Source of the DNA: Patescibacteria group bacterium
GTDB lineage: Bacteria > Patescibacteriota > Patescibacteriia > Magasanikbacterales > GWA2-37-8
NCBI GenBank assembly: GCA_041661385.1
Contig: JBAZUP010000002.1
Span: 14,670 to 78,669 of the forward strand
Length of the DNA: 64,000 nt
Direction: 5' to 3'
The notes beneath the pieces were generated by a model. The model saw nothing but the letters and a program-made list of their open reading frames with translations. It searched no databases and had not been told where the DNA came from. The translations under genes and the position numbers were made by a program. Of the stretch, positions 5,368-62,291 are shown piece by piece. Numbering within the stretch: position 1 is the first letter of the stretch; each line of letters starts with the position of its first letter.

Positions 5368-5444
5368 AATAATTTAAATTGCTCTTTTTAAGGGAGGAAG
5401 AAAAAAGTTTACGCGTCGTTGACAACTTAACCAGGGAGGCACCA

Positions 5445-6134
5445 ATGCTTAGCGTCGCTTCGACCAGAAGAGAAGACAAGACAATCGCCATTTACGAGCG
5501 TGCGAAAGCCGGTATGGTGGCAATTCTATCCGGTTCTCCGGGTATCGCAAATTACGCATCGATTTGCGCCACCACGCATCTCATGATCAATTGTTCCGGT
5601 GATTGGTTGAAAGTTTTGGACAACAGCATATTCAAATTGCTTGAGTATGAAGAGCGCGTGGCGGTTTTGCCGCTTGCTCTTGGTGAAGGTATTTTGCAGG
5701 GGTGCGCCGATAATCGGCGCATGAAAAAGTTGTGTGACGAACTTGATCCGGACCAATTTAATTCGCCGGCCTGCCGGGTGTTTACATATCTCTCAGCCCT
5801 GCTTGTCGGCTCCATCGTCATCCGACCCTATTACACCTCAGAACGGGGTGAAACGGATGGGTGGCTTCGTCATGCCCTCAAGGTCAACATGCCAGACTGT
5901 TCTCCGGAAATATATCGTTCCGAACTTGCCAAGTTCGAACCATTTTTCCGGAATCCGGATACTTTCCTTGTTCCTGGGGAGGATCCGGATGAAACCGTTG
6001 TCATGAATACTTTGGTTGCTGTTCAGACAGCGCGTCTGCGGCCCGAGTGGGAGCAGCAAAAGGCATTTCGCGAACGCGTTAGAACGGCCGAAATTTTTAC
6101 GGCCATTTGTCAGCGCGGAGGGCGCGCAAACTAA
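5445..6134 (+). CDS. Hypothetical protein encoded in a GC-rich (~53% GC) islet
   Basis: ORF open from 5379. ATG at 5445 is preceded by GGGAGG. No recognisable motifs. Local GC is clearly above the ~35-40% background. Confidence 0.5.
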   Translation: MLSVASTRREDKTIAIYERAKAGMVAILSGSPGIANYASICATTHLMINCSGDWLKVLDNSIFKLLEYEERVAVLPLALGEGILQGCADNRRMKKLCDELDPDQFNSPACRVFTYLSALLVGSIVIRPYYTSERGETDGWLRHALKVNMPDCSPEIYRSELAKFEPFFRNPDTFLVPGEDPDETVVMNTLVAVQTARLRPEWEQQKAFRERVRTAEIFTAICQRGGRAN

Positions 6135-6167
6135 TTGTTTTTGCTCGTTTTTCCGCAAAAATGAGCC

Positions 6168-6200
6168 AAAACCCGCCAGTCCGCTGGCGGGTTTCTTATT
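6168..6200 (+). terminator. Intrinsic terminator
   Basis: AAACCCGCCAGTCCGCTGGCGGGTTT hairpin plus CTTATTT. Confidence 0.6.
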
Positions 6201-6226
6201 TGGCTTGAATAAGCCAAATTATACCA

Positions 6227-6255
6227 TTGACAAAAGTGCAAAAAAGGAGTATAAT
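6227..6255 (+). promoter_or_regulatory. Consensus sigma70-type promoter TTGACA-17 nt-TATAAT
   Basis: TTGACA at 6227-6232, 17-nt spacer, TATAAT at 6250-6255. It drives a ~115-nt leader and the ORF at 6373. Confidence 0.65.
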
Positions 6256-6372
6256 GTTATGTTTTGATAATTAGGGGTAGAAGTCACTTTTTCCTCTGAT
6301 TATCGAAGCAAAACGCTTTCGAGAAGTAGGCTTGTCCTACGCAGTTCTTTCCAACCCAAACCAGGAGAAACG

Positions 6373-6915
6373 ATGTCCACGTCCCATGTTTATTTGAACA
6401 TTTTTCTCGTTGTCATGTTCTTTGGTAGCCTTGCTACCGCGGTCCTCTTCCGGAGCCGTTTTACGCGCTTGCTCAGCATCGCGATCATGTTGTCGGTTAT
6501 CGTGATCGTTTTCACTGTTCGTCACGAAGACGAGCATGACCTGCTTTCCAAGTTTCAGGCTACGAGCTTCGGAACTCTAGATATTGATGAGGTCGCGAGA
6601 TCCGCGTCCGACTGCCATAGCGGCAAGCTCGCGAAGGGCACCAATCGGTGCGCTCCTGATCAATTTCGAGTTTGCCTGAGCAGTGCCGGAGTTCCGGTTA
6701 CTTTCTGGGCGGGTTCAAGATTTAGCGGAACGCGTCTAACGGGTTCCGACAAGTGCGTGCTTAGCGATCCAAGCTCAGGGGAGACGGCCGCGACCGGCGT
6801 CGGTGAAATGTTCGGCTCTTGCCGGCAGTTTACTTTTTGGGAGCTAGACGGTGTTCCCTGTTGGTGGCGTGCCCCCAATTATCTCGCGACATGGGATCGC
6901 GGCAGAATCTATTAA
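6373..6915 (+). CDS. Hypothetical membrane-anchored protein with two N-terminal TM helices and a Cys-rich C-terminal domain (GC-rich islet)
   Basis: 180 aa. RBS CAGGAGA upstream of the ATG. Hydrophobic N-terminus LNIFLVVMFFGSLATAVLF and LLSIAIMLSVIVIVFTV. Several Cys in the C-terminal half. Confidence 0.5.
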   Translation: MSTSHVYLNIFLVVMFFGSLATAVLFRSRFTRLLSIAIMLSVIVIVFTVRHEDEHDLLSKFQATSFGTLDIDEVARSASDCHSGKLAKGTNRCAPDQFRVCLSSAGVPVTFWAGSRFSGTRLTGSDKCVLSDPSSGETAATGVGEMFGSCRQFTFWELDGVPCWWRAPNYLATWDRGRIY

Positions 6916-7018
6916 GTAATAGAAAAATGGTTTGGCACGAGTTCTCCGAAGCTCGCCGCCTTACCACTTTGTTTGCAAAAAAATTGCAGATAAAGTGGTG
7001 GCGAGCTTCTAAATAATT

Positions 7019-7050
7019 TAAAAAACCACCCATTTGGGTGGTTTTTTATT
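7019..7050. terminator. Bidirectional intrinsic terminator between the convergent 6373 gene and htpX
   Basis: AAAAACCACCCATTTGGGTGGTTTTTTATTT, a perfect hairpin with A-run and T-run flanks. Confidence 0.7.
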
Positions 7051-7953: not shown

Positions 7954-8769
7954 TTATTTGGCAGCAGTGGTTGCAAAAAATTTCGGTACAAAATCTTTGG
8001 TTTGATGTGGCGGAAGTCCGCGTAAAATCGGAGTAAAGGTTACTGAACATCTTTTTTGTATCATACCCTTACTTCTTCCTTTAAAGCTACAGTTGAATAA
8101 ATAAGTGGTAATTATTTCACCCCGGGAATTTTCTATTTCAACTTTTTCAAAATTAGTATAGCGCAAGCTGGCTGCTACAGGCATTTGGCGGGAATTAATT
8201 TTGAGATAATCGGTAAAAACCTTAACAATTTCTTCTACTGACATTTTACAGCCGCTTTGTTCTTTTAACTCTTCAAATATTTGTTCGGCGGTTAAAGAAT
8301 AATCCAATTCTTTTTTTTCAGGCTCAGCACTTTCAGGATTTTTTGGTATCCGGTATTCATCAGAAAAAAGCGGATGTGGTTCATCATTTTCCATCATCGT
8401 TCTTACTTCTTCAACAAACTTGCTGTGTTTTTTTGCCTGTTTAGGATTTTCTTTTTTTTCCGCAACATCCGGGTCAGCTGATTCGGAATTAAGATTAACT
8501 TTTTCTGCTATCTGGTTGTGAATATAGTCCCGCTCCTTTTTGGTAAGCAGATGATCGTGTTTGATCAACTCCATGATTTGATTAAAACGATCCATTTTGA
8601 CTTGGCGATTAATTTTTGAAGTATTTTCTAAATCAACTTTGAAAAAATAGGTTTCAATAAACCGGTCAATGCGTTTATCAAATTTATCGGCAAGTTCATC
8701 TGATTCTATTGCCGCTTTGCCGATTTCTTTTGATTTTTCAGGGTTATATCCCGAATTATTCTCAGGCAT
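7954..8769 (-). CDS. Hypothetical soluble protein encoded between lemA and htpX
   Basis: 271 aa, no TM segment, charged and low-complexity in the middle. Translationally coupled to both neighbours. Confidence 0.5.
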   Translation of the reverse strand: MPENNSGYNPEKSKEIGKAAIESDELADKFDKRIDRFIETYFFKVDLENTSKINRQVKMDRFNQIMELIKHDHLLTKKERDYIHNQIAEKVNLNSESADPDVAEKKENPKQAKKHSKFVEEVRTMMENDEPHPLFSDEYRIPKNPESAEPEKKELDYSLTAEQIFEELKEQSGCKMSVEEIVKVFTDYLKINSRQMPVAASLRYTNFEKVEIENSRGEIITTYLFNCSFKGRSKGMIQKRCSVTFTPILRGLPPHQTKDFVPKFFATTAAK

Positions 8770-8772
8770 AAT

Positions 8773-9339
8773 TTAGAACTTGACTTGGACGTTTTGTTTT
8801 TCTTCTGCTACCGCGGTGAAGAAATCAAAGGCGGTAAAATGAAGAACGTTTGCAAAAATATTGGTTGGAAAAACCTGAATCTTGGTGTTGAAGTCGCGGA
8901 CATTGCCGTTGTAAAAGCGGCGAGCAGCTTGAATTTTATTTTCCGTGTCGGAAATTTCATCTTGAAGCTGAAGAAAGTTATTGCTAGCTTTGAGTTCCGG
9001 GTAGTTTTCACTGACTGCAAAAATGGTTTTAAGAGTGGAAGAAAGCTGGTTTTCGGCCTGTTCTTTTTCGGCGACAGTTGCCTTGGGGTTATTGCTCGCG
9101 GTCATGGCAGCGGTACGGGCTTCGGCGAGCTTTACCAGGGTTTCCCGTTCATGAGTCATGTAGCCTTTTACAGTTTCGACCAGATTTGGAATCAGGTCGT
9201 AGCGTCTTTTGAGCTGAACATCAATATCACTGCTTGCTTCGCTGACTCGATTTTTACTTTGGATTAGATCATTATATACGTAAATTACGTAGATAACGAT
9301 TGCCGCTAAAATTGCGACAATTACCGTAGTTGGAGTCAT
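8773..9339 (-). CDS. lemA: LemA family protein
   Basis: N-terminal TM helix plus the conserved LemA core (QLKRRYDLIPNLVETVKGY ... NYPELKA ... ARRFYNG). Confidence 0.85.
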   Translation of the reverse strand: MTPTTVIVAILAAIVIYVIYVYNDLIQSKNRVSEASSDIDVQLKRRYDLIPNLVETVKGYMTHERETLVKLAEARTAAMTASNNPKATVAEKEQAENQLSSTLKTIFAVSENYPELKASNNFLQLQDEISDTENKIQAARRFYNGNVRDFNTKIQVFPTNIFANVLHFTAFDFFTAVAEEKQNVQVKF

Positions 9340-9423: not shown

Positions 9424-10623
9424 TTGGCTGTGTTTACTCTTCTTACTTTTATAGCGGTTTTAGCGGTTCTAGTCATCTCCCATGAATTTGGGCATTTTAT
9501 TGTTGCCCGCAAAAACGGTATTCAGGTGGATGAATTTGGTTTTGGTTTTCCCCCTCGTTTGATTGGTATCCGCCGGGTATCGTTTGGCGGTAAAAAGAAG
9601 TGGCAAATAATTTGGCACAAGCGCCAACTGGAAGAAGTGCTCGAACACGACCATCTTGGAACGATTTATTCCATCAATCTTATTCCGCTTGGCGGATTTG
9701 TAAAAATAAAAGGTGAAAGCGGTTTTGAAGAAGGCGCAAACGACCCGGATAGTTTTTTTGTAAAAAAGACCTGGCAGAAAGCAATTGTGATTGCGGCCGG
9801 TGTTATCATGAACTTTTTCTTGGCAGGCGTATTGCTTTCAGTGGGTTATATGATAGGGATGCCCCAGGTTGGAGATGGCGATGCTGGACCAAATAGTAAA
9901 TTACAAGTGGTGCAGGTGATGCCAGAAATGCCGGCTGATAAAGTTGGTATTAAGTCAGGAGCGGAAATTTATGAAATGTCAGCTGGCGGACAAATTTTAA
10001 ACGCGCCGAACGTAAACAATTTTCGTGAGTTTGTAAATAGTCACCGCAATGAAGATATTTTGGTTAAGTATAAATTTGAAGGAAAAAATTTGGAAAAAAC
10101 TATAAAACCGGAAATACTTGAAGGTACGGATCGGGCCGGTTTCGGAGTGGTAATTGTAAATGTTGGTACCGTTCGTTATCCATGGTATCGCGCTATCGTT
10201 GAAGGTTTTAAAAGTGCCGGGCAATATTTATTCATGATTTTTGCCGGTCTCTGGTCGTTGCTTAAGCAGTTGTTTGCCGGGCAATCGCTTGATGGCCAAG
10301 TGGCTGGGCCGGTTGGTGTCGCGGTTATTACTGGCGAAGCCGCACGCATGGGATTTGTCTATTTACTACAGTTGACCGCTCTATTATCATTGAATTTGGC
10401 AGCCATAAATATTTTGCCGATACCGGCGTTAGACGGCGGCCGGCTCATGTTTATTCTGATCGGTAGAATTTTACGTCGAGAAATCAAACCGCGGATTGAA
10501 AACTTTATTCATACTGTAGGGTTCGTTTTGCTTATGGCCCTAGTGGTTACTGTGACGGTAAAAGATCTTGGAACTTTTGGCGGAGGTTTTATCGAATGGT
10601 GGAAAAATTTAATCCGTTTTTAA
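9424..10623 (+). CDS. rseP: RIP (site-2) zinc metalloprotease RseP/M50 family
   Basis: HEFGHF (HExxH) in the first TM helix, a PDZ-like middle region, and LNLAAINILPIPALDGGRL near the C-terminus. Apparent TTG (or GTG at 9430) start. Confidence 0.85.
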   Translation: MAVFTLLTFIAVLAVLVISHEFGHFIVARKNGIQVDEFGFGFPPRLIGIRRVSFGGKKKWQIIWHKRQLEEVLEHDHLGTIYSINLIPLGGFVKIKGESGFEEGANDPDSFFVKKTWQKAIVIAAGVIMNFFLAGVLLSVGYMIGMPQVGDGDAGPNSKLQVVQVMPEMPADKVGIKSGAEIYEMSAGGQILNAPNVNNFREFVNSHRNEDILVKYKFEGKNLEKTIKPEILEGTDRAGFGVVIVNVGTVRYPWYRAIVEGFKSAGQYLFMIFAGLWSLLKQLFAGQSLDGQVAGPVGVAVITGEAARMGFVYLLQLTALLSLNLAAINILPIPALDGGRLMFILIGRILRREIKPRIENFIHTVGFVLLMALVVTVTVKDLGTFGGGFIEWWKNLIRF

Positions 10624-14600: not shown

Positions 14601-14612
14601 TATAAAATTACA

Positions 14613-14648
14613 AACCCCTCACTATAAAAGCTGAGGGGTTTTTTTGTT
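14613..14648. terminator. Intrinsic terminator
   Basis: AAACCCCTCACTATAAAAGCTGAGGGGTTTTTTTG. Confidence 0.7.
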
Positions 14649-14685
14649 GGCCATTCAAGGCCTCCTCCTTGGAGTTCACCAGTTC

Positions 14686-14889
14686 TCACGTCGCTCGACG
14701 GTCGTTCCGCAGGGCGCGGATCTTGGCGCTGATGCGCTTTGTCGAGTCGCCGTTTGGGGCATGGCTGCGAAGCTGTTCAAGCTTCATGATGAGCTCTTCG
14801 GGCAAAAGTCCGCTCGTCATGATCTTGTCGAGTTCCACATTGAACTCCTCCGGTGTCCACTTATGGCTGCTGTCTGTTCCATCAGACAT
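14686..14889 (-). CDS. Small hypothetical protein (67 aa) in a ~55% GC islet
   Basis: ATG preceded by GAAGGAG. The ORF track shows a 72-aa version starting 5 codons earlier. Composition contrasts sharply with its neighbours. Confidence 0.35.
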   Translation of the reverse strand: MSDGTDSSHKWTPEEFNVELDKIMTSGLLPEELIMKLEQLRSHAPNGDSTKRISAKIRALRNDRRAT

Positions 14890-15043
14890 GTTGCACTCCT
14901 TCACTTCGGTGTTTTTTATGTTTCTGTAATCCTCGTAGAATGCTAAATTAGCTTAGCATTTTTAGCAGTAAAGTCAATGCTAGAGGGTAAATTTGGACGG
15001 TTGATTTAGTTAAAAATATAAGGTAAGATGGCTTTACAAAAAT

Positions 15044-19604: not shown

Positions 19605-19608
19605 ATTG

Positions 19609-19682
19609 TGTCAAGGGCGGGGCTCGAACCCGCGACCTTAGCGTTATGAATGCTACGCTCTAACCAGCTGAGCTACCCTGAC
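19609..19682 (-). tRNA. tRNA-Met (anticodon CAT); could equally be initiator or Ile2-type, not distinguishable by eye
   Basis: Minus-strand sequence GTCAGGGTAGCTCAGCTGGTTAGAGCGTAGCATTCATAACGCTAAGGTCGCGGGTTCGAGCCCCGCCCTTGACA folds as a cloverleaf. Acceptor 7 bp (one GU), D-arm GCTC/GAGC, anticodon loop TTCATAA, T-arm GCGGG/CCCGC. CCA is not encoded. Confidence 0.8.
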
Positions 19683-20268: not shown

Positions 20269-20970
20269 TTAGCGAATATAAACTTCGGCAATGTGAGCGC
20301 GGAATTGTTCGGCGAGATCCATTGTTTCTTTTTCACTAAAGGGGTGGTAATTGCCAAAGACCGGATTCAATGTTGTTTCCGGTCGGAAGGTCTGCAAGTA
20401 AAGTTTTTTTGCGCCCTTCAATAGTCGACACATTTCAATTATTACATCTGGGGTATGGACCTCTTTTACTAGGGTAGTGCGGAATTCATATTCAATTCCG
20501 CTGTCTTGTATTAAGCGAATACTTTCGGCGATTTGCTGTTCGGCTGCCCAAGGGCCAACCAGACCCTGGTATCTTGGAAGTGAAGTTTTCACATCCATAG
20601 CGATATAGTCGAGTAAGTTTTTGGCCAAAAGTTTTTTTAAGACTGCCGGTCGGTTACCATTGCTGTCGAGTTTAACCAAATAATTACGGGATTTAATTTT
20701 TTCAATAAATTGCTCAAGGTCAGACATGAGAGTTGGCTCGCCGCCCGAAACAACTACCCCATCAAGAAGGGTAGTGCGTTGATCCAAAAAGTTAAAAAAC
20801 GCTTCCTCCGTAATAAAATTCGGACGAAGCGCTGCAACCTTTTCCGGAAGAACAAATTCTGGATTGTGGCAGTAACCGCAACGGAAGTTGCAACCCGGGG
20901 TGAAAACAATGCAACTGACTTTGCCCGGGTAATCAAGTACGGTAAACGGCTGAATGCCGCTTAAGAGCAT
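20269..20970 (-). CDS. nrdG: Anaerobic ribonucleoside-triphosphate reductase activating protein (radical SAM)
   Basis: CNFRCGYCHN (CxxxCxxC) radical-SAM cluster motif. Directly downstream of nrdD. Confidence 0.85.
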   Translation of the reverse strand: MLLSGIQPFTVLDYPGKVSCIVFTPGCNFRCGYCHNPEFVLPEKVAALRPNFITEEAFFNFLDQRTTLLDGVVVSGGEPTLMSDLEQFIEKIKSRNYLVKLDSNGNRPAVLKKLLAKNLLDYIAMDVKTSLPRYQGLVGPWAAEQQIAESIRLIQDSGIEYEFRTTLVKEVHTPDVIIEMCRLLKGAKKLYLQTFRPETTLNPVFGNYHPFSEKETMDLAEQFRAHIAEVYIR

Positions 20971-21158
20971 AATTTGTATTGTTCGTTAAATTCATGGTTC
21001 GCAACCATTGCTTCGGTGAAGTGTTTGCGTGAGACATGTTCGGATTTCTTGCCGGTATTAAAATGCGATACCGGGCGGTGATAACCCATAACACGAGTCC
21101 ATACTTCACAGCGAGTTCGCTCGGCTGTGACTAATTGTGCTGCAGCTGCGGCTGACAT
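20961..21158 (-). CDS. Free-standing C-terminal glycyl-radical domain fragment of NrdD
   Basis: TRVMGYHRPVSHFNTGKKSE matches the class III RNR glycyl-radical motif (RVxGY..F..GK). It is in the same frame as nrdD but separated from it by TAA (21198-21200) and TAG (21171-21173). There is no SD in front. Confidence 0.55.
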   Translation of the reverse strand: MSAAAAAQLVTAERTRCEVWTRVMGYHRPVSHFNTGKKSEHVSRKHFTEAMVANHEFNEQYKLCS

Positions 21159-21197
21159 ATATTTGACAAGCTAAATATAATTATTTAAAAAATGTAG

Positions 21198-23318
21198 TTA
21201 TCGCGAGGAGGATTTGCTTTGGTGACGGGCGCGCCATTCAGCATCAAGGTGCGGTGCGTCGTTGTTAATTCCGAGCTCCGCGTCGCATTTCGGGCACCAG
21301 TCGTATTCTCCAATCAGGTAGCCATGTTTTGGACAAATTGAGAATGTCGGGGTAATGGTGATATAAGGGAGTCGAAAGTTAGTAAGAATTTTTCGAACCA
21401 GAGTGCGGCAAGTTTCTGGTGAGCTAACTTTTTCAGACATGTAGCAGTGTAATACTGTACCACCGGTGTATTTGGTTTGTAAACCGTCTTGCAGGCGGAG
21501 CACTTCGAACATGTCGTCGGAATAGCCAACCGGAACTTGCGATGAATTGGTGTAAAACGGAGCTTCGGGAGTGCCAGCCTGGAGAATTCCGGCAAAGCGT
21601 TTTTGATCTTCTTTGGCAAAACGGTAAGTGGCGCCTTCGGCCGGGGTTGCCTCAAGATTATACAGGTTTTTTGTTTCTTCTTGAAAATCCTGAAGTTTGG
21701 CGCGCATAAAGTCGAGAATCTCACCGGCAAACTCCTGGCCCCAGGCGGTAGTGATATTTTCTTTGTCATCGGTGAAGTTTCGAATCGCTTCATTGATACC
21801 GTTTACGCCGATGGTTGAAAAATGATTCTTCAGATTGCCGAGGTAGCGTTTGGTATAAGGGAAAAGTCCGCCATCAATCCATTTTTGGATTTCTTTACGT
21901 TTTAATTCTAAAGAGGTTTTTCCCAGTTCCATGAGATAAGCAATTCGTTCCAAGAATTTTGCTTTATCTCCTTTGTGCATGTAGCCGATGCGGGCAGCGG
22001 AAATAGTGACCACACCAATTGAACCAGTCATTTCGGCCGAGCCAAAGAGTCCGCCACCGCGTTTGCGTAATTCTTTTAAATCGAGTTGCAAACGGCAACA
22101 CATGGAGCGAACGTCGGCGGGGTTTAAATCTGAATTGATAAAGTTTTGGAAATAAGGAGTGCCGTATTTAGCGGTCATTTCGAAGAGGGGGAGAGTCTTG
22201 GGATCAGTCCAGTCGAAATCTTTGGTGATATTGTAAGTTGGAATCGGGAAGGTGAAGGTGCGGCCTTTGGAATCACCGTTGGTCATGACTTCAACAAAAG
22301 CGAGATTGATTATGTCCATTTCTTTTTGCAATTCTCCAAATTTAAAAGCAAAAGGTTTGCCGCCGAGGAGGAGTCGCTTTTCTTTCAGGTCGGTCGGTAC
22401 CGTCCAGTCGAGAGTGATATTGGTAAAAGGAGTTTGAGTGCCCCAGCGGGATGGAATATTCAGGTTAAAGACAAAAGACTGCATGTTCTGGTAAACGTAT
22501 TCGTAAACCTTTTTTTCAATGTGCTTTTCTTTTGCTGCTTCGTCTTTAAATACCAAACCACTTTCTTCAACATCTTTGCGTAATTCAAGTTCAAATTTTC
22601 TAACAAACGGCGCAAGGTATGTATCGAAACTTGAAAAGGCTTGTGCACCGGCCCATTCATTTTGGAGAGTGCCGAGAAAATTTACCATCTGAGCAACTGC
22701 TGAGGAAAGGTGTTTTGGTGGACCGCTTTCAATTTTGCCTGGAACGCCGTTGAAACCTTCTTCAAGCAGAGCGCGCAAGCTCCAGCCGGCGCAATAGCCA
22801 GAAAACATGTCTAGATCATGAATGTGCACGTCGGCATTGCGGTGCGCGTCACCAACGTACTTCGGATAGATGTGAGAAAGCCAATAATTAGCGGTAACTT
22901 TGCCGGCGGTGTTTAAAATCATGCCACCGAGCGAATATCCTTGGTTAGAATTAGCGTTTACGCGCCAGTCTAGCTGGTTTAAGTATTCAGAAATGGTCTT
23001 TTCTACCTCAACTACAACATTTTTTTCCTGACGGACCTCACTACGTTTCTGGCGGTAAATGATAAACGATTTTGCTACCGCGCTGTAATCATAATTGATG
23101 AGTTTTTGTTCCACAATGTCCTGAGCATCTTCAACGTGTGGTACAGTATCGACATATTTTTTTTCAAGTTCGGCAATTACATCGGCGGCGATGGTCGCGG
23201 CGGCAGCTGTGTCTGGTGTGCCGACGGAATTGAATGCTTTTATAATTGCATTTTCAATTTTCTTCGGATCAAAGTCAATTACGGCGCCGTTGCGTTTTTG
23301 GATCTTGTGAATAGGCAT
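21198..23318 (-). CDS. nrdD: Anaerobic ribonucleoside-triphosphate reductase NrdD (class III), lacking its glycyl-radical C-terminus
   Basis: 706 aa. N-terminal ATP cone, class III RNR core, C-terminal Zn ribbon CPKHGY...CPKCD. Promoter TTGAAG-17-TATAAT and RBS GAGGG upstream on the minus strand (about 23330-23400). Confidence 0.85.
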   Translation of the reverse strand: MPIHKIQKRNGAVIDFDPKKIENAIIKAFNSVGTPDTAAAATIAADVIAELEKKYVDTVPHVEDAQDIVEQKLINYDYSAVAKSFIIYRQKRSEVRQEKNVVVEVEKTISEYLNQLDWRVNANSNQGYSLGGMILNTAGKVTANYWLSHIYPKYVGDAHRNADVHIHDLDMFSGYCAGWSLRALLEEGFNGVPGKIESGPPKHLSSAVAQMVNFLGTLQNEWAGAQAFSSFDTYLAPFVRKFELELRKDVEESGLVFKDEAAKEKHIEKKVYEYVYQNMQSFVFNLNIPSRWGTQTPFTNITLDWTVPTDLKEKRLLLGGKPFAFKFGELQKEMDIINLAFVEVMTNGDSKGRTFTFPIPTYNITKDFDWTDPKTLPLFEMTAKYGTPYFQNFINSDLNPADVRSMCCRLQLDLKELRKRGGGLFGSAEMTGSIGVVTISAARIGYMHKGDKAKFLERIAYLMELGKTSLELKRKEIQKWIDGGLFPYTKRYLGNLKNHFSTIGVNGINEAIRNFTDDKENITTAWGQEFAGEILDFMRAKLQDFQEETKNLYNLEATPAEGATYRFAKEDQKRFAGILQAGTPEAPFYTNSSQVPVGYSDDMFEVLRLQDGLQTKYTGGTVLHCYMSEKVSSPETCRTLVRKILTNFRLPYITITPTFSICPKHGYLIGEYDWCPKCDAELGINNDAPHLDAEWRARHQSKSSSR

Positions 23319-23591
23319 AAATTAGTCCCTCGGGGTTAAAGATGAAGAAAATTTTTGGTAGAGAAATTATACCACTAGCCACTTCTATCTTCAATGGTAA
23401 AAACTGCAAAAAATTATGGCTTACTTAAGCGGAAAAAAACCAAGTAATAAGTTATCCACAGTTAGCAAATAAAAAAAACATTTAGTGGTTGAATATTTAT
23501 TCAAACACTACCGGTAGTATTTGAAACCAATACAAATTGGAATGGTGCTGTCAAGATAGTTTTTTTACTAAAAAAGTGCATAACTTTTGGA

Positions 23592-24771: not shown

Positions 24772-24810
24772 AAAAAAACCACCAAATTACTTTGGTAGTT
24801 TTTATTTTTC
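24772..24810. terminator. Bidirectional terminator
   Basis: AAAAAAACCACCAAATTACTTTGGTAGTTTTTATTTTT. Confidence 0.6.
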
Positions 24811-24896
24811 TCTGAACCGTTCTCATCTATAGATAGTGTGTCTACAAATGAGAGCGAACGGTCCAGAATGGAGTCTGGTCGGTCGGTCTCTTTAAC

Positions 24897-25301
24897 TTAT
24901 GGATCAAGCCTGAAAGGGATAATCCACCTCAACTTTTCCCTCTCGTTTGAGAGGGTGGCGATTTGGGCGTTGGTGAAGAGTGTTCGAATCAGGGTCTTCT
25001 TTTCTTGGTCAGAGGTATTTTCATACCTGCCGAGGTTCGGAATGTGGCAAAAAAGGCCATTTTTTTCGTTCGCTACCCCAATGTCGTATTTGATTTTTGC
25101 CCAGCCATCGTGAAGCAAGCGAGGTTCATCCTTCACAAGAAGGGCAAATAATCGTTCGAGCGCTTCCTTATCGGTGGTTGCCACCATCCTTCTTTCAAAG
25201 GTAAGGAGCACGCCATCACGCTCGAGGTAGTAGATCCTTCTTGGTTGCCATCCTTCTGGGTCATCTAGAACAGCCGCTAAAGTTTCACCGATTTTACACA
25301 T
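24897..25301 (-). CDS. Hypothetical protein (134 aa), second gene of the operon divergent from lexA, in a GC-richer segment
   Basis: ATG at 25301 preceded by GGAGG. It overlaps the stop of the upstream ORF (translational coupling). The ORF track shows a longer 150-aa version. Confidence 0.45.
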   Translation of the reverse strand: MCKIGETLAAVLDDPEGWQPRRIYYLERDGVLLTFERRMVATTDKEALERLFALLVKDEPRLLHDGWAKIKYDIGVANEKNGLFCHIPNLGRYENTSDQEKKTLIRTLFTNAQIATLSNEREKLRWIIPFRLDP

Positions 25302-25710
25302 AGTGTGTCCTCCAGGGGTTGGAAATGAACCGGCTGTACTTTGGCTCAAGAATTACCATCAGTAGGATATCGTGTGGAGTCTTATCATCTTTATGTTTCA
25401 ACTGCAGGTAAACCTTGTAGAAATAAATTGCGGCCAAATGGGCGCCTGAGAAGTAAGATTGCACCTCACCGGTGTCTGGCAATCGGCAAAGAGTCCTTCT
25501 CCTGTTTACTTCTACGGTGACATGTTCAATTTGGTATTTGCATCCAGCAAGATTCAAATAATAATCAGAGTCACAGATGATCTCATCACCTTTGGCTTTG
25601 AGAATCTCTGTAAAAATATTTCCCGGCATGGTCACGCGGTTGGCGTTTGTTTTTTTCCAGCCGTGCCAAAGTTTTCCCAAAATTTCAAGGAGCCTTTCCT
25701 TGTATTTCAT
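25294..25710 (-). CDS. Hypothetical protein (138 aa), first gene of the operon divergent from lexA
   Basis: ATG preceded by GGAGG (minus strand). No recognisable domain. Confidence 0.45.
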   Translation of the reverse strand: MKYKERLLEILGKLWHGWKKTNANRVTMPGNIFTEILKAKGDEIICDSDYYLNLAGCKYQIEHVTVEVNRRRTLCRLPDTGEVQSYFSGAHLAAIYFYKVYLQLKHKDDKTPHDILLMVILEPKYSRFISNPWRTHYV

Positions 25711-25788
25711 AGCTTCCTCCGAGAGTGGAAATACTTGCTAATCCTCGCATAGAAACCGGCTTTAGTCAATGGTGGGGAAGTTATCCAC

Positions 25789-27880: not shown

Positions 27881-27944
27881 AAGTAACAATCTTTACAAAT
27901 ACTATATATAATGATAGTTTCAAACCACAGGAGGAATTACCGAG

Positions 27945-28214
27945 ATGACAAACGAGCTGTTGAGCAGCGGTGACTTGCAGTTTTTGAAGAAATTGTCGCA
28001 TGGCATGACGCTCAGCGAGTTGTTTGAAAAAAAGGGGATTATTCGTTCGGGCATTCTCATTACTCGTATAATTAGACTCGCAAAACGAGGCTACGTCACC
28101 TTCGGCGAAGGTCGTTTTGCTTGCAGCTCTCCAAGATGTGTCCCAACCATTGCGGGAGAAGGGGAAGTCATTAGGAGTGAGTTCGAGGAGGATCCTTTTT
28201 GGAAAAATCGGTAA
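27945..28214 (+). CDS. Small hypothetical protein (89 aa), GC-rich islet
   Basis: RBS CAGGAGG. Possible helix-turn-helix-like segment LSELFEKKGIIRSGILITRIIRLAKRG. It has its own terminator. Confidence 0.4.
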   Translation: MTNELLSSGDLQFLKKLSHGMTLSELFEKKGIIRSGILITRIIRLAKRGYVTFGEGRFACSSPRCVPTIAGEGEVIRSEFEEDPFWKNR

Positions 28215-28252
28215 AAATAAACTATGGAGGCTGCATTTCGCAGCCTCCATAG
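28212..28252. terminator. Bidirectional terminator
   Basis: ATGGAGGCTGCATTTCGCAGCCTCCAT perfect hairpin, with a T-run on the minus-strand side. Confidence 0.6.
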
Positions 28253-28288
28253 TAGAATCACTTTAAAGAAGTGGTTTTTTTTATTGTG

Positions 28289-29092: not shown

Positions 29093-29179
29093 AAGTGATT
29101 AGATAAATATATAAATGTTTTCCAGCTGATATTATACTCCTTTGTTATCGGTTTGAAAATGTGCTACCCTTAATAAAGA

Positions 29180-33020: not shown

Positions 33021-33049
33021 TTGACAAAACCCGGTTTTTGTGATATATT
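33021..33049 (+). promoter_or_regulatory. Strong sigma70-type promoter TTGACA-17-TATATT
   Basis: TTGACA 33021-33026, 17-nt spacer, TATATT 33044-33049. Drives a GC-rich ~330-nt unit ending in the terminator at 33356-33385. Confidence 0.6.
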
Positions 33050-33186
33050 GTGATGTTCTTTAAAATCGCCAAAACACTCCGATGTTTGCCGGTTTATACC
33101 GCTAAACACCGGAAGGGTCCAGATTTAAAACTGGACGCAAGACCGGTTTAGTCGCCCGAGTCTCCCTTCCTAAACAGGACAAATAT

Positions 33187-33348
33187 ATGTTTAGGGCCAT
33201 AAGTGGAGCCTTGTCGCTTCTTCTCTGCATTCTAGTCTTGCGTTTGGCTCTTCCTGAGGTGTTCACGGTCCTGGTCGGGATCATTCTAAAAGTGCTGACC
33301 TTAGTCAGCAACGGAATTGATCTCGCATCAAGCCAAAGAACACTTTAA
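33187..33348 (+). CDS. Candidate small hydrophobic protein (53 aa, two predicted TM helices) inside the GC-rich unit
   Basis: MFRAISGALSLLLCILVLRLALPEVFTVLVGIILKVLTLVSNGIDLASSQRTL. Below the 60-aa cutoff of the ORF track. Weak RBS (AGGAC). A terminator hairpin starts 8 nt after the stop. The ~130-nt leader contains hairpins and a duplicated ACCGGTTTA. Confidence 0.35.
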   Translation: MFRAISGALSLLLCILVLRLALPEVFTVLVGIILKVLTLVSNGIDLASSQRTL

Positions 33349-33355
33349 ACGACTT

Positions 33356-33385
33356 GGGGTTCGCGTCGCGAACCCCTTCTCTTTG
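33356..33385 (+). terminator. Intrinsic terminator
   Basis: GGGGTTCGCGTCGCGAACCCC followed by TTCTCTTT. Confidence 0.65.
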
Positions 33386-33410
33386 ACAAAACTCTAACTC
33401 GGAGGAACTC

Positions 33411-33791
33411 ATGAAGTTCTTCGCACTGCTTGCAGTCGTTTGCCTTTTTGGTTGTGGTAATCTCAGTTACCCTTGCGGGCTATCATGTGACAATGATAGC
33501 CACCTTTGTACCTGCGAGCCACACCATGGCTCCACCGAACAGTTCTGGATTCACGATGCCTACGCCGTCCGATTCTTCACCTGTGGCTGCAAGTATACTC
33601 GCAGCGCAGGTTCTACATCGGGGGCTCCGATTCCATCTGACCCAAGTCTCGGCGAGTGCTACGCCATCGCAGTCGGTTCGGTGAACCCACCATATGATTG
33701 TGAGATGTCTCGCAGTCAGTATTCTGGGTACGAACCCTGCATTCGTATTATCGAGATGGGGGGCTCGGTTGCCTGCGGAGATCCTCGTTAA
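33411..33791 (+). CDS. Cys-rich secreted lipoprotein (GC-rich islet)
   Basis: RBS GGAGG. Signal peptide with lipobox LFGC. 14 Cys in 126 aa. Confidence 0.55.
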   Translation: MKFFALLAVVCLFGCGNLSYPCGLSCDNDSHLCTCEPHHGSTEQFWIHDAYAVRFFTCGCKYTRSAGSTSGAPIPSDPSLGECYAIAVGSVNPPYDCEMSRSQYSGYEPCIRIIEMGGSVACGDPR

Positions 33792-33815
33792 GGATCAAAT
33801 TCGTTCTTTTTCAAA

Positions 33816-33848
33816 GCCGGTCGCTTCCACGCGACCGGCTCTTCTTTT
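33816..33848 (+). terminator. Intrinsic terminator
   Basis: AGCCGGTCGCTTCCACGCGACCGGCT followed by CTTCTTTT. Confidence 0.6.
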
Positions 33849-33849
33849 A

Positions 33850-33895
33850 ATAAAAAACTCCCCGATTGCTCGGGGAGTTAAAATTTTATTTTTTA
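33850..33895. terminator. Bidirectional terminator; on the minus strand it terminates hup
   Basis: AACTCCCCGATTGCTCGGGGAGTT flanked by A-runs and T-runs. Confidence 0.65.
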
Positions 33896-37800: not shown

Positions 37801-37813
37801 AGTTTTGTTTTTG

Positions 37814-37885
37814 TAGTCCCAACGGGAATTGAACCCGTATTTTCGCCTTGAAAGGGCAATGTCCTAACCATTAGACGATGAGACC
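37814..37885 (-). tRNA. tRNA-Glu (anticodon TTC)
   Basis: Minus-strand GGTCTCATCGTCTAATGGTTAGGACATTGCCCTTTCAAGGCGAAAATACGGGTTCAATTCCCGTTGGGACTA. Cloverleaf with anticodon loop CTTTCAA and T-arm ACGGG/CCCGT. Promoter TTGACT-17-TATATT upstream on the minus strand (about 37900-37932). A terminator hairpin directly follows. Confidence 0.75.
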
Positions 37886-41783: not shown

Positions 41784-41986
41784 AGCCTCGTCATTCTAGC
41801 TTTATTTTATTAATTAATCAATTATCAACAAAAAAATCCCTTGAAAGAAAATATAATATATGCTAGCATGAAGTATCCTTTTTTGGTTTTGTTCTTTCTT
41901 TGGCTGCGTGCTGCTTGTTGTGAAGAAGTTTTATTCACAAAGTGCAGTACGTAGCAAAACAGCGAACCATCATCCGGAGGCGGAAG

Positions 41987-42163
41987 ATGAATGATGCGAT
42001 TGAGGGCGGTGCTTTCATGGGTAGGTCTCTAGATCGGGGGAATGTCGCCACCAGTGGAAAGAAGCGAAGTCTTCACAATCTCGCAATCGATTTGTTTGCC
42101 CTCATGATGGGGCTTACGATGTGGCTCATCATTGTTGCCGTCTTCGTGGGTTTTGCCCACTAG
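41987..42163 (+). CDS. Small hypothetical protein (58 aa) with a C-terminal TM helix, in a GC-rich islet
   Basis: ATG preceded by GGAGG. TM helix LFALMMGLTMWLIIVAVFVGF. Followed by its own terminator. The track ORF starts at 41942. Confidence 0.35.
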   Translation: MNDAIEGGAFMGRSLDRGNVATSGKKRSLHNLAIDLFALMMGLTMWLIIVAVFVGFAH

Positions 42164-42226
42164 GTTCGCGAAAGTTGCGCGGGTAGTTAGTCTTCCCGCC
42201 TAAGCTCTTCGGAGCTTTGCTTAAAA

Positions 42227-42267
42227 GGGGTCGGTGTTGTTTTATGGCACCGACCCCTCCTTCTTAT
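42227..42267 (+). terminator. Intrinsic terminator
   Basis: GGGGTCGGTGTTGTTTTATGGCACCGACCCC followed by TCCTTCTTATT. Confidence 0.6.
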
Positions 42268-44871: not shown

Positions 44872-44905
44872 TCAAAAAGACCAGTGAAGCTGGTCTTTTT
44901 TTATT
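44872..44905 (+). terminator. Intrinsic terminator after trxA
   Basis: AGACCAGTGAAGCTGGTCT followed by TTTTTTTATT. Confidence 0.7.
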
Positions 44906-45300
44906 CTCGCTATCCCCGCCTACAACGCTTTGCGTAGCAATGCGGGCAGGGCTCAATCAATTTTAAGTTTACCATATATTCAATTTTCCTTAGCCCTGCC
45001 GGCGGCATCACTTTTCATAACTGAAAAGTAATCAAAAGGTTCTGGGGGCCGGCAGAACTCGTCGTGCGAACTCCTCAAACAGCTGGCGGCCCCCAAACCC
45101 CCGTTGGGTAATTAGTTTGTCAGCTTCGATTCCGAGCATATGTGAAACGACTGCAAACTTCCCGGCGAAATTAGTTTTTTCAATGCGACTTTGTACTTTT
45201 GAAAAAATCGTTAAGATTGAGCCGAGGAATTTGCGGAGTGGAGCATCAGCTCGGCGCCTTTTGGGCTCCACCCGTTTTGGGCGCACAAAATGGGTGGAAT
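44906..45300 (+). repeat. Copy A of a ~395-bp GC-rich hairpin-dense repeat (candidate structured RNA element)
   Basis: Near-identical over ~200 nt to 52955-53160, then ~70% identical with indels. Contains at least 5 strong stem-loops. ORFs 45117-45302 (+) and 45032-45364 (-) inside it are probably artefacts. Confidence 0.7.
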
Positions 45301-45399
45301 AGACAAATGAATAATAGATAACTAAACTAAAAGAGCGGCAGTTAAAAAATATTGTAATAGACAAGCGAATAAGCTAGAATAGCGAAGCTATCTTTATAT

Positions 45400-52944: not shown

Positions 52945-52954
52945 TTTTACGCAT

Positions 52955-53350
52955 CTCGCTATCCCCGCCTGCAACGCTTTGCGTAGCAATGCGGGCAGGG
53001 CTCAATCAATTCAACACTTACCTTAATTCAATATTCCTTAGCCCTGCCGGCGGCATCACTTTTCATAACTGAAAAGTAATCAAAAGGTTCTGGGGGCCGG
53101 CAGAACTCGTTGCCGCGAGGCACCTCAAACAGCTGGCGGCCCCCAAACCCCGTTGGGTAATTGGTTGGTAAACAATTGGATTCCGAGCCTTTGTGGAACG
53201 AAAGCCAAATGTCCGGCGAAATTAGATTTTTTCAATGCGACCCTGCACTTTTGAAAAAATCGTTTTGATTTCGCCGAGACATTTGCCGAGTGAAGCATCT
53301 GCGAGGCAATTTTGGGGGCACACCTTTTGTTGCCAAAAGGGGTGTGGAAT
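52955..53350 (+). repeat. Copy B of the ~395-bp GC-rich hairpin-dense repeat
   Basis: Starts directly after the methyltransferase stop codon. Aligned to copy A in the text of the findings. Its last hairpin overlaps the putative RBS of the downstream ComEC-MBL gene. Confidence 0.7.
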
Positions 53351-53360
53351 AAAATGTTTT

Positions 53361-54191
53361 GTGACAAAAAACAAAATTTTAATAATCGCAATTATAATAA
53401 TCCTAGGGGGATTTTTTTATTTCCGCTATTCTGAAGCGGAACGCCACAAATTTAAGATTGTATTTTTAAATGTCGGCCAGGGTGATGCAACTGTAATACA
53501 ATTTGAAACTGGAGAAAAAATGTTGGTGGATTGTGGGCCTGATCGGGGGATTCTCTCGGCACTTGGTCGCAACCTGGCTTTTTACGACCGTACTATTGAT
53601 TACCTTTTAATCTCTCATCCCGATCTTGATCATTATGGCGGCTGTGTGGATGTTTTAAAAAATTATCAGATAAAAAAGATCTATATAAATGGACGGGAAA
53701 AAACCGACTCGTATTTTCGGGAGTGGAAAAGTGTGAGTACCGGATATTTAACTGAAATCGCCGGCGTCTCAACCACTCTCACCATTGCTTCATCGTCGTT
53801 CCGATTTTTTTCGCCGGACTTATCTTTGGTTTTTAAAAATAAAATATCCGATAATGATTATTCAATAATTTTTAAATTAAGCCATGGTAGCAGCAGTTAT
53901 TTGTTTACCGGCGACGCCGAAGAAACGCTGGAAAAATTATTAGTTGAAAAATATTGTCCGGAAGTAAATAATGCCTGTCCACTTCAGTCTGGTGTTTTGA
54001 AAGTTGGTCACCACGGTTCCGACGGATCTTCGAGTGAGTTATTTTTGTCGCGGGTGAAGCCAATTGAAGCTGTCATTTCGGTTGGCAAGAATAAATTCGG
54101 CCATCCGGGCCTGCGTGCCATCCGCCACCTTGAAAGAATTGGCGCGAAAATCAAACGGACTGATGAAAGCGGGGACATTTCTATAAAATGA
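53361..54191 (+). CDS. ComEC-type metallo-beta-lactamase-fold domain protein with an N-terminal TM anchor (detached C-terminal domain of ComEC)
   Basis: FLNVGQGDATVIQ ... ISHPDLDHYGG (HxHxDH) ... VGHHGS. GTG start at 53361. The in-frame ORF extending upstream to 53235 runs through repeat B and is not conserved with copy A at the protein level. Confidence 0.7.
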   Translation: MTKNKILIIAIIIILGGFFYFRYSEAERHKFKIVFLNVGQGDATVIQFETGEKMLVDCGPDRGILSALGRNLAFYDRTIDYLLISHPDLDHYGGCVDVLKNYQIKKIYINGREKTDSYFREWKSVSTGYLTEIAGVSTTLTIASSSFRFFSPDLSLVFKNKISDNDYSIIFKLSHGSSSYLFTGDAEETLEKLLVEKYCPEVNNACPLQSGVLKVGHHGSDGSSSELFLSRVKPIEAVISVGKNKFGHPGLRAIRHLERIGAKIKRTDESGDISIK

Positions 54192-54365
54192 AAAACTCTT
54201 GACGATATTCGTCGGCAAGAGTAAACTTTTTGTAAATATAGGCTGGCTTGCCAGCTGCTACAAAAGCGGCTCAGGCCGCACCTGGGGGCCCCTCCCCATC
54301 AGCGCCGTCGATCCAAAGATCTCCGGCGCTTTAAATTTAGATGAAATTTACTGTGCAAAATAGCC

Positions 54366-54394
54366 TTGACAAAGTTGATAAAAAGGAGTATAAT
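54366..54394 (+). promoter_or_regulatory. Consensus promoter TTGACA-17-TATAAT, near-duplicate of the promoter at 6227
   Basis: TTGACAAAGTTGATAAAAAGGAGTATAAT vs TTGACAAAAGTGCAAAAAAGGAGTATAAT. Confidence 0.65.
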
Positions 54395-54399
54395 TCGAT

Positions 54400-54740
54400 G
54401 TTGTGACAGTACGGAATTAGCCATTTTTGGCTTATCTGGCTGACGATTTTGGCTTGTTTTGAGCCAAGGTCGGCAGCCGGATTTCCCGGCGCCACAACCA
54501 AAGGGGTCTTTAAAGACTCAAATGACGACCATCACCAGCTTCAGCTTTTCCCACGTTCACATCGATCGTCACACCGCGGGCGCCGTCGCGCCCTGACCCG
54601 TCGCCGCCGGCCGCCGAAGCCGACAGTTAGCGCCTGGTGCGCTACCTGACCGGTTAGGCCAACCAACTCCTCATGGAGGAGTCACATCGTGAAGATCACG
54701 AAGCCGAAGGTTCCGCTGTAGCGGATACAACCCCCAACAC
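54400..54740 (+). other. GC-rich (~58% GC) transcribed segment between the promoter and terminator with no convincing ORF: candidate non-coding RNA of unknown class
   Basis: Only ORFs are a TTG-initiated Arg-rich 66-aa frame without an SD, plus 24-aa and 10-aa fragments. Hallmark motifs of tmRNA (T-arm/CCA), RNase P (GGAAAGTCC) and SRP were looked for by eye and not found. Confidence 0.35.
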
Positions 54741-54778
54741 CGGGCGGCCGAGCAATCGGCCGCCCTCATCTTTTTTTG
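54740..54778 (+). terminator. Intrinsic terminator
   Basis: GGGCGGCCGAGCAATCGGCCGCCC followed by TCATCTTTTTTT. Confidence 0.7.
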
Positions 54779-54834
54779 GAAACAAAAACAAAAAATGTTA
54801 TAATAATTGCGCCTCGTTTTAGGGCACGGGCATT

Positions 54835-62255: not shown

Positions 62256-62291
62256 CCTGCCCGCATTGCTACGCAAAGCGTTGCAGGCGGG
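62256..62291 (-). repeat. Isolated inverted copy of the 5' hairpin module of the 395-bp repeat
   Basis: CCTGCCCGCATTGCTACGCAAAGCGTTGCAGGCGGG is the reverse complement of CCCGCCTGCAACGCTTTGCGTAGCAATGCGGGCAGG at 52965-53000. The real groEL terminator hairpin follows at 62312-62345. Confidence 0.65.

Follow-up and report, generated by a model that had tools for sequence, protein, structure and literature searches.

GC-rich accessory genes with Shine-Dalgarno sites between the conserved genes of a Magasanikbacteria genome

Hundreds of genomic islands have been detected by their composition in the genomes of Patescibacteria, the exchange of such DNA taking place mostly within the phylum (PMC12455944). 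The present analysis concerns short segments rich in guanine and cytosine (GC), scattered between housekeeping genes in a 64 kb stretch of contig JBAZUP010000002.1 (the window below) from an uncultured Candidatus Magasanikbacteria (Patescibacteria, also Candidate Phyla Radiation, CPR); eight such segments had been singled out by a sequence-only reading and are called islets 1 to 8 in the order of their positions. The islets resemble the genomic islands in the atypical composition, the absence from the syntenic sites of relatives (islets 1 and 2), the accessory or ORFan content and the position between core genes. However, they are much smaller units of 0.3-1.5 kb with one or two genes, and are devoid of mobility genes, tRNA anchoring and flanking repeats; in addition, their GC exceeds that of the core, contrary to accessory DNA in general, which tends to be AT-richer, and they are marked by an initiation signal that the core lacks. 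With a probability of about 0.55, the islets are regarded here as lineage-specific accessory genes that came from, or were formed within, a flexible GC-rich gene pool of Magasanikbacteria which makes use of Shine-Dalgarno sites.

The gene cassettes of integrons are another system of comparison, being likewise small units, mostly with a single open reading frame (ORF) without known function, often with secreted products, and with a hairpin-forming sequence after each unit; the islets differ from them by promoter-like sites of their own, while the cassettes are typically promoterless, and by their scattered positions, with no common attC-like site and no adjacent integrase. With respect to the translation initiation, the GeneMarkS-2 description (PMC6028130) includes genome classes with non-Shine-Dalgarno or leaderless initiation, as well as compositionally "atypical genes", and the coexistence of a non-Shine-Dalgarno core with a minority of genes bearing the site and with genes of atypical composition is common to those genomes and the present one. 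The difference is that the Shine-Dalgarno minority here coincides with the GC-rich accessory and surface-protein class, a coupling observed across about 45 related loci. Scattered ORFan islets of atypical composition are already known, and those described here are accessory ORFan islets with no new mechanism; worth a genome-wide follow-up are the GC-rich polarity, its coupling to the Shine-Dalgarno site and a conserved GC-rich block of surface-protein genes.

Base composition and Shine-Dalgarno sites

The bulk GC of each segment was compared with that of all same-length windows, and the clear outliers were found to be 5400-6915 (islet 1; 50.4% GC, z 3.6, top 0.1%), 14650-14900 (islet 2; 56.2%, z 2.8), 33056-33800 (islet 6; 50.3%, z 2.6) and 54240-54780 (islet 8; 55.5%, z 3.65, with a core of 67.5% at 54567-54766), followed by the weaker outlier 41880-42260 (islet 7; 49.9%, z 1.9). 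The segments 24840-25750 (islet 4; 45.6%, z 1.3) and 27940-28215 (islet 5; 47.1%, z 1.1) were no outliers in bulk GC, and 21130-21290 (islet 3) was rejected as an islet, having a normal GC (45.3%, z 0.6) and representing only the junction of a two-piece nrdD gene. The original picture of islets of 50-58% GC in a chromosome of 35-40% GC is, therefore, retained for five of the eight segments as bulk-GC outliers and has to be corrected for the three ordinary segments and for the window itself, whose overall GC is 41.6%.

A sharper distinction was given by the GC content at third codon positions (GC3), which in the core genes (n=48) was 0.376 +/- 0.043, with the maximum of 0.458, and in all nine islet ORFs was 0.50-0.71, i.e., higher than in every one of the 48 core genes (Mann-Whitney p = 1e-6), including the ORFs of the two segments with unremarkable bulk GC (islets 4 and 5). 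When the islet proteins were recoded with the core codon usage, 40-49% GC was predicted versus 43-57% observed, so that approximately half of the islet GC excess is due to the amino-acid content and half is synonymous. Outside the ORFs, the islet leaders, spacers and 3' ends have 40-59% GC as compared with 31 +/- 7% in the core intergenic DNA, and, therefore, the GC shift is regional rather than codon-level alone. Thus, the view that the islets form a compositionally distinct class and not the extreme of gene-to-gene drift was confirmed, both by the GC3 above that of every core gene and by the GC-rich non-coding parts.

The same genes are distinguished by their initiation signal. The sequence GGAGG or AGGAG (the strict Shine-Dalgarno motif) was found 4-17 nt upstream of eight of the nine islet starts, the ninth having AGGA, versus one of the 48 core genes (Fisher p = 5e-8), and in 43 of the 48 nothing resembling a Shine-Dalgarno motif is present. 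Both strands were also scanned blindly for starts with a strict site, followed by at least 25 codons and located outside the core genes, which yielded the eight strict-site islet ORFs (some of them also with alternative starts) and, in addition, two short ORFs, one of which is antisense within islet 1. The claim that nearly all islets have a canonical Shine-Dalgarno site, lacking in many of the AT-rich housekeeping genes, is hereby borne out and even stronger than it was made. The core genes are described here as AT-rich and without a Shine-Dalgarno site only, no claim of leaderless transcripts being made; it was also observed that many core start codons in the window are preceded by an A/T-rich sequence ending in ...AAT.

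The generality of this dichotomy was assessed in about 45 Magasanikbacteria loci, the window excluded, with GC3 expressed relative to the locus median. The strict motif was found in 4-5% of the ORFs with GC3 within 0.05 of the median and in 40-42% of the ORFs with GC3 more than 0.15 above the median, which is about eightfold the core rate; in two Bacillota control loci, treated by the same method, it was found in 42% of the ORFs. Patescibacteria loci in general (L003-L082) are poor in Shine-Dalgarno sites, with the strict motif before 8-19% of the ORFs. In the related loci, the GC-rich Shine-Dalgarno class is enriched in Cys (3.9% vs 0.95%) and in the lipobox (26% vs 1%), and it also holds enzymes of an ordinary kind, among them uridine kinase and adenylosuccinate lyase, that have an imported look. 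No paper tying the use of Shine-Dalgarno sites to GC-rich genes in Patescibacteria was found in the literature.

GC-rich gene pairs with Shine-Dalgarno sites were also noticed downstream of dnaE in the relatives (L013 16111-17178, L024 5040-6887 and L029 13605-15469), each with a conserved protein of 350 aa without a Pfam hit. The partner in L029 is a uridine-kinase-family protein (Pfam PRK), and that in L024 has, by eye, the same P-loop N-terminus; the three pairs look like a small shared cassette. No phage match was found for these pairs or for a GC-rich enzyme-like gene of a relative.

The I1b domain, its parent gene and a conserved GC-rich block

The second gene of islet 1, I1b (6373..6915, + strand; GC 54%, GC3 0.60, AGGAG site), encodes a 180-aa protein which starts with two hydrophobic helices and whose residues 64-180 form a Cys-rich C-terminal domain. 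By an exhaustive HMMER search of 1.84 billion representatives, six other clusters were found to match these residues, with 39-43% identity and E of 5e-21 to 4e-10; a profile search of a word-indexed database with the alignment of the I1b domain returned the query's own cluster only. The six clusters are proteins of 380-650 aa, rich in Cys, Thr and Gly, with the shared domain at or near their C-termini, and most of them have a lipoprotein signal peptide and several a cytochrome-c-like CxxCH module. All 17 invariant columns of the alignment are kept in I1b, six of them Cys; S, G, P, F, T and two Trp are among the others. The domain is about 115 aa long and unnamed (family members P0013-P0018, P0021 and P0022), and its AlphaFold2 (AF2) model from I1b is beta-rich (pLDDT 74), with no significant neighbour in the PDB.

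One protein of this family, a surface lipoprotein of 573 aa (WC725_01570, locus L164), is encoded in the same genome. I1b does not have the architecture of this lipoprotein family, which comprises an N-terminal lipoprotein signal, Cys-rich repeats, often the CxxCH module, and a position upstream of a Wzy_C gene; it has the two hydrophobic helices and the domain only, and it is located between the PGM and HtpX genes. I1b is thus a truncated and relocated paralogue of a resident gene, joined to a two-helix anchor and to a promoter module which is also present at islet 8. Both genes have been difficult for annotation, as gene callers give I1b three different starts and the parent gene is fragmented in the NCBI records.

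The parent gene ends a block of four genes with 52-60% GC and GC3 of 0.63-0.73 among genes of 36-42% GC (L164). At the same site, between Wzz-like and Wzy_C genes, a block of three to four genes is found in L163, L167 and L168 (at least the last gene). The block proteins are only 23-40% identical across the species, the flanking proteins being 56-87% identical, and the block has 52-65% GC and GC3 of 0.63-0.91 versus 0.29-0.51 for the flanks (L163, L164 and L167), being GC-richer than its flanks in all four species. As foreign composition should fade over such divergence, a single ancient import would not account for the block, which is either repeatedly replaced from a GC-rich pool or kept GC-rich by some force. 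Since the parent of I1b sits in a conserved GC-rich block, GC-richness alone does not point here to foreign DNA of recent arrival.

The O-antigen gene clusters of Enterobacteria are surface-antigen loci with persistently atypical GC. The block with the I1b parent is similar to them in being fixed beside the Wzz-like and Wzy_C genes, in diverging much faster than its flanks and in keeping an atypical composition across species; it differs in being GC-rich in an AT-rich genome and in encoding Cys-rich lipoproteins instead of sugar-pathway enzymes, and the islets of the window are, moreover, scattered single genes. As a separate observation, two block genes of L164 are preceded by a repeated leader (8880-9000 and 9920-10000), in which AAGAATTACCG and a hairpin are followed by another hairpin, overlapping with the Shine-Dalgarno site, and by GGAG; this suggests a shared cis-regulatory RNA element.

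Architecture and genomic setting of the islets

According to the predicted signals, an islet would be built of a sigma-70-type promoter and a Shine-Dalgarno site before one or two short ORFs, with a terminator hairpin at the end, from which its own expression would follow. Where the promoter of a protein-coding islet could be mapped (I1b, islet 6 and islet 7), a predicted structured leader of 110-130 nt comes after it. The proposal of strong TTGACA-N17-TATAAT promoters was found to hold for the perfect 12/12 matches at 6227-6255 (islet 1, upstream of I1b) and 54366-54394 (islet 8) and for the 11/12 match at 33021-33049 (islet 6), and to be too general for the other islets covered by the promoter scan (5 and 7), which have weaker sites of 9-10/12. 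Similarly, terminator-like hairpins were found 3' of islets 1 (both genes), 4, 5, 6, 7 and 8, as it had been suggested, while islet 2 has only an inverted repeat (14612-14641), which is off the terminator-scan list and is common to the upstream gene. On the whole, the description of the islets as autonomous transcription units is supported, as far as this can be read from promoter and terminator sequences. A promoter module of 47 nt is 79% identical between islet 1 (6221-6267) and islet 8 (54360-54406), spanning the -35 box, the spacer, AAGGAGTATAAT and the start region, with a minimal ATG-codon-TGA frame after both copies; the AAGGAGTATAAT part recurs at 29131-29142 (- strand), upstream of an SDR gene. 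As compared with dinucleotide shuffles, the whole islet transcripts fold with z from -1 to -8, mostly below -4, the core controls being at -0.25 +/- 1.3; part of this signal is due to the terminators, and the values are -0.4 to -5 for the coding parts alone and -2.9 to -5.4 for the leaders.

Islet 1 begins with I1a (5445..6134, +; GC 51%, GC3 0.53, GGAGG site), a 229-aa ORFan that is predicted to be helical and cytoplasmic and whose AF2 model is uninformative (pLDDT 35), followed by a terminator hairpin at 6169-6194. The sigma-70-type promoter of I1b (6227..6255, +) gives a predicted leader of about 111 nt, and the 3' end of the islet (6945..7048) consists of a long imperfect hairpin (6945-7010) and a bidirectional terminator (7019-7048) common to islet 1 and htpX on the minus strand. 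I2 (14686..14889, -; GC 56%, GC3 0.71, AAGGAG site) is a 67-aa ORFan at the junction of the 128aa and dnaE genes. Islet 4 (24897..25710, -) is a two-gene operon divergent from lexA, with I4b (25294-25710, 138 aa, GC3 0.50) and I4a (24897-25301, 134 aa, GC3 0.52), both with GGAGG and with the overlapping stop and start ATGTGTAA, and with a terminator at 24774-24803. I5 (27945..28214, +; 89 aa, GC3 0.52, AGGAGG site) has a weak winged-helix-like match only and is followed by a strong hairpin at 28221-28253.

Islet 6 (33021..33879, +) has a leader of about 131 nt, I6a (33187-33348), which is a 53-aa membrane peptide, a hairpin at 33356-33376, I6b (33411-33791; GGAGG site), which is a Cys-rich lipoprotein-like ORFan of 126 aa, and two terminators (33815-33840 and 33856-33879). 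Islet 7 (41841..42258, +) lies between truB (-) and infB (+), with a weak promoter at 41841-41869 and a leader of some 111 nt that folds with z of -4.9, followed by I7 (41987-42163; 58 aa with a C-terminal hydrophobic helix, GGAGG site) and a terminator at 42226-42258. Five of the nine islet products are predicted envelope proteins, namely the two-helix-anchored Cys-rich beta-domain protein, the Cys-rich lipoprotein-like protein and short membrane peptides.

Islet 8 (54366..54785, +) is predicted to give a transcript of about 370-390 nt with 59% GC, from the promoter at its start to a terminator at 54742-54765, and it contains no ORF longer than 66 aa and none with a credible start. Two short ORFs were noticed inside it, the one of 24 codons at 54522-54596 (+) and the other of 10 codons at 54678-54710 (+; GTG start, MKITKPKVPL), whose GGAGGAG site lies within a CTCCTC/GAGGAG hairpin; either of them might encode a small peptide or act as a regulatory upstream ORF. 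The simplest reading of islet 8 is a structured RNA of about 380 nt or a decayed gene. Known non-coding RNAs were rejected as the source of the GC peaks of the window, as only two tRNAs were found by Rfam (gathering score, and E up to 5) and ARAGORN, at 19608-19682 and 37813-37885, outside the islets and with neither of them adjoining any islet; no transfer-messenger RNA (tmRNA) was found in the window by ARAGORN.

The searches for homologues returned for I1a and I6b self matches only among 5.8 billion protein clusters, and none of the nine islet proteins had a match above noise in Pfam, NCBIfam or PHROGs, the six products other than I1a, I1b and I6b having been compared at the protein level with profile libraries only. 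The IMG/VR scans with I1a, I1b and I6b and the blastn of INPHARED with the DNA of islet 1 (5380-7050) were empty, and a phage origin, either as a prophage remnant or as a moron, was not supported by these scans or by PHROGs. No donor lineage with closer homologues outside the clade was seen for I1a and I6b among the same clusters, and the relatives of I1b are found only in Magasanikbacteria-type contexts. Accordingly, the proposal of a host-derived or phage-derived nature received no support within the scopes of these databases. By tblastx of all the islets against 168 loci, the I1b domain alone was matched, and the 47-nt promoter module was the only DNA similarity among the islets or with any locus.

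The proposal of a specific kind of mobile cargo fared no better. The islet ends, which had been suggested as a place to look for short direct repeats, have none, and target-site duplications and terminal inverted repeats are missing as well, terminator stems and chance matches in AT-rich sequence being all that was detected; there are no shared or flanking repeats or attC-like sites beyond the terminator hairpins, and no recombinase or integrase was seen adjoining the islets. With neither terminal inverted repeats nor a target-site duplication, the islets do not qualify as miniature inverted-repeat (MITE) or insertion-sequence (IS)-derived elements. The units thus have in common neither end repeats, target-site duplications nor DNA similarity, and no neighbouring recombinase.

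The best matches of DnaE from this organism are Magasanikbacteria and other Patescibacteria metagenome-assembled genomes (MAGs), with at most 77% amino-acid identity, and a metagenome scan with PheS for a closer relative gave nothing above 67% identity. About 30 related loci share the gene order PGM-HtpX-LemA-M50 protease-PheS-PheT-128aa-DnaE-361aa, and no tblastn match to I1a, I1b or I2 was obtained in 162 related loci (2.3 Mb). The gap between PGM and HtpX is 1.7 kb here versus 11-1564 bp in the relatives, and that between 128aa and DnaE is 443 bp versus about 150-2350 bp elsewhere; in the relatives, both junctions carry other accessory genes of variable GC. In L014, the neighbours of islet 7 are about 0.5 kb apart versus 1.7 kb here, with truB and the islet both missing. 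Thus, islets 1 and 2 are missing from the syntenic positions of about 30 related genomes, and the single insertion between conserved genes, as it had been supposed for all the islets, is confirmed by synteny for these two and in part, through L014, for islet 7.

Two other features of the window were noted. The nrdD gene (20961-23318, -) is split into a 706-aa ORF, which stops just past the Zn-ribbon, and a separate 65-aa ORF with the glycyl-radical C-terminal motif (Pfam NRDD, E 9e-8), in the same frame and with two stop codons, eight codons apart, between them; because the relative L015 has the same split (about 21345-23555), it looks like a conserved two-subunit arrangement and not a fresh pseudogene. 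A pair of GC-rich 404-bp direct repeats (44905-45301 and 52954-53351) is 84% identical, with indels of lengths not divisible by three, a plus-strand fold z of -4.7 and no Rfam match, and its 36-nt core occurs also at 62256-62291 (-) and at 14556-14592 of L015; both copies are found directly upstream of plus-strand genes (at 45400, and the ComEC-type metallo-beta-lactamase gene at 53235), and the repeat is a candidate for a structured leader or a small RNA family.

Origin of the islets and its meaning

The preferred reading takes in the observed composition, the Shine-Dalgarno dichotomy, the synteny gaps, the ORFan status of the products, the paralogy of I1b and the conserved GC-rich block. One alternative to it, that of the sequence-only reading, is that the islets were recently acquired from beyond the lineage, each of them arriving with a promoter, a Shine-Dalgarno site and a terminator of its own, the donor being a GC-richer host bacterium using Shine-Dalgarno sites, or else a phage or plasmid. 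Such a source would account for the atypical GC of both the coding and non-coding parts, for the frequency of Shine-Dalgarno sites equal to that of the Bacillota control loci, for the absence of islets 1 and 2 at the syntenic sites of the relatives and for the ORFan products, and it may be seen at work in the imported-looking adenylosuccinate lyase and uridine kinase of the relatives; the Patescibacteria also encode a ComEC-type uptake machinery, with a gene of the ComEC-type metallo-beta-lactamase domain in the window (53235-54191). However, no donor is visible, given the self-only matches of I1a and I6b and the empty results from IMG/VR (I1a, I1b and I6b), INPHARED (islet 1 DNA) and PHROGs (all islet proteins), the relatives of I1b occur exclusively in Magasanikbacteria-type contexts, including its own genome, the hallmarks of integration (integrase, att sites, target-site duplications, terminal inverted repeats) are missing, and a GC-rich block has been positionally kept in four species despite the protein identity of 23-40%, which make the outside acquisition rather unlikely. 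An artefact, in which GC-rich pieces of other organisms were chimerically joined to the contig by assembly or binning, is suggested by the derivation of the window from a metagenome assembly and yet is highly improbable: the window sequence is also present in one ENA contig and two Logan contigs, with the same gene order round islet 1, the islet proteins looked up were all found both on a JGI/NCBI contig of 148.9 kb and in a pair of MAGs deposited independently (with the locus tags WC725_ and WCT43_), so that the junctions are identical in independent assemblies, and the islet ends fall at the terminators and promoters of the flanking genes.

On the opposite side stands the view that the islet genes are native and that their high GC is actively maintained with no transfer, the candidate causes being the amino acids used (Cys, Gly, Ala, Arg, Pro), selection for structured mRNA dependent on the Shine-Dalgarno site, or GC-biased gene conversion in a recombining family of surface proteins. 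It is in agreement with the amino-acid share of about half of the GC excess, with the block GC3 of 0.63-0.91 despite the extreme protein divergence, which implies a standing force, with the within-family duplication shown by I1b, and with the stable folding of the leaders and some coding sequences (z -2.5 to -6 against -0.25 +/- 1.3 in the controls); it is nevertheless unlikely for the islets, whose genes none of the relatives examined has at the syntenic sites, whose spacers are also GC-rich, which codon-level selection does not explain, and eight of whose nine products have no paralogue to convert with. A further alternative, with a chance not far below even for islet 8 only, concerns the product and not the source, namely, that some of the islets are RNA genes, above all islet 8 (54401-54770) and possibly the long leaders of I1b and of islets 6 and 7. 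Structured RNAs stand out as GC-rich islands in AT-rich genomes, and islet 8 holds no convincing ORF between its perfect promoter and strong terminator and folds with z of -5.8 by the folding tool and -7.5 by separate shuffles, the leaders also having z of -2.9 to -5.4. Against this, no family of Rfam is matched, E values up to 5 included, and no homologous sequence from which covariation could be read was found in any locus; the minus strand of islet 8 folds too (z -4.5), so that the signal is partly due to hairpin symmetry, and the other islets have long ORFs with Shine-Dalgarno sites, one of them with conserved residues.

Several points also weigh against the origin of the islets from a Magasanikbacteria gene pool, which is preferred here. 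An endogenous source has been shown for I1b only, the other eight products being without relatives in the searches made, and the comparison of synteny covers islets 1 and 2 and partly 7. The nearest relative has 77% DnaE identity, so that the boundaries are approximate, and the islets may have been either gained here or lost elsewhere. The start codons were partly picked with the Shine-Dalgarno site in view, though independent gene callers agree for seven of the nine, and the 3' end of 16S rRNA with the anti-Shine-Dalgarno sequence was sought in vain, as there is no rRNA within the window or the related loci. Finally, an AT-rich (35% GC) lineage-specific ORFan of 271 aa is located at the HtpX-LemA junction (7954-8769, -) and is missing from all the relatives; because of it, the accessory genes here are not uniformly GC-rich.

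Under the gene-pool reading, the islets would occupy the intergenic slots of a rigid syntenic core, and the relatives would fill the same junctions with other accessory genes. The ORFans other than I1b most likely entered, or were turned over, through DNA uptake and recombination in the patescibacterial gene pool. The islet mRNAs, being GC-rich and more structured, would need the pairing with the Shine-Dalgarno site to initiate, and the envelope products plausibly act at the cell surface, for example, in the contact with a partner cell.

A bolder extension may be put forward tentatively, with the odds rather against it, according to which the Magasanikbacteria, and perhaps the Patescibacteria more widely, would combine in one small genome an AT-rich core without Shine-Dalgarno sites and a GC-rich compartment with them. 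The second compartment would possibly have structured mRNAs and, for the mapped promoters, long leaders, and would encode Cys-rich envelope proteins that evolve fast, together with small genes of new formation. Its high GC might be kept over speciation by GC-biased conversion in a recombining pool of surface genes or by selection on the mRNA structure or Shine-Dalgarno control, and would then be no passing trace of foreign DNA. The islets of the window could, on the same tentative footing, be the small-gene fringe of this compartment, with I1b conceivably a gene just being born through the duplication of a domain and the capture of a promoter.

Patescibacteria, whose genomes are tiny, are believed to spend their life in attachment to other cells. 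The combination of high GC3, a Shine-Dalgarno site and an own promoter and terminator provides a signature, available from sequence only, of lineage-specific and probably surface-exposed genes, which the gene callers and annotators handle poorly, as in the case of I1b. If the link between the GC-richness and the Shine-Dalgarno site holds genome-wide, the islands called from composition would not be simply recent foreign DNA, and these bacteria would offer a natural system for the study of how a ribosome that mostly ignores Shine-Dalgarno sites treats the minority of mRNAs that bear them.

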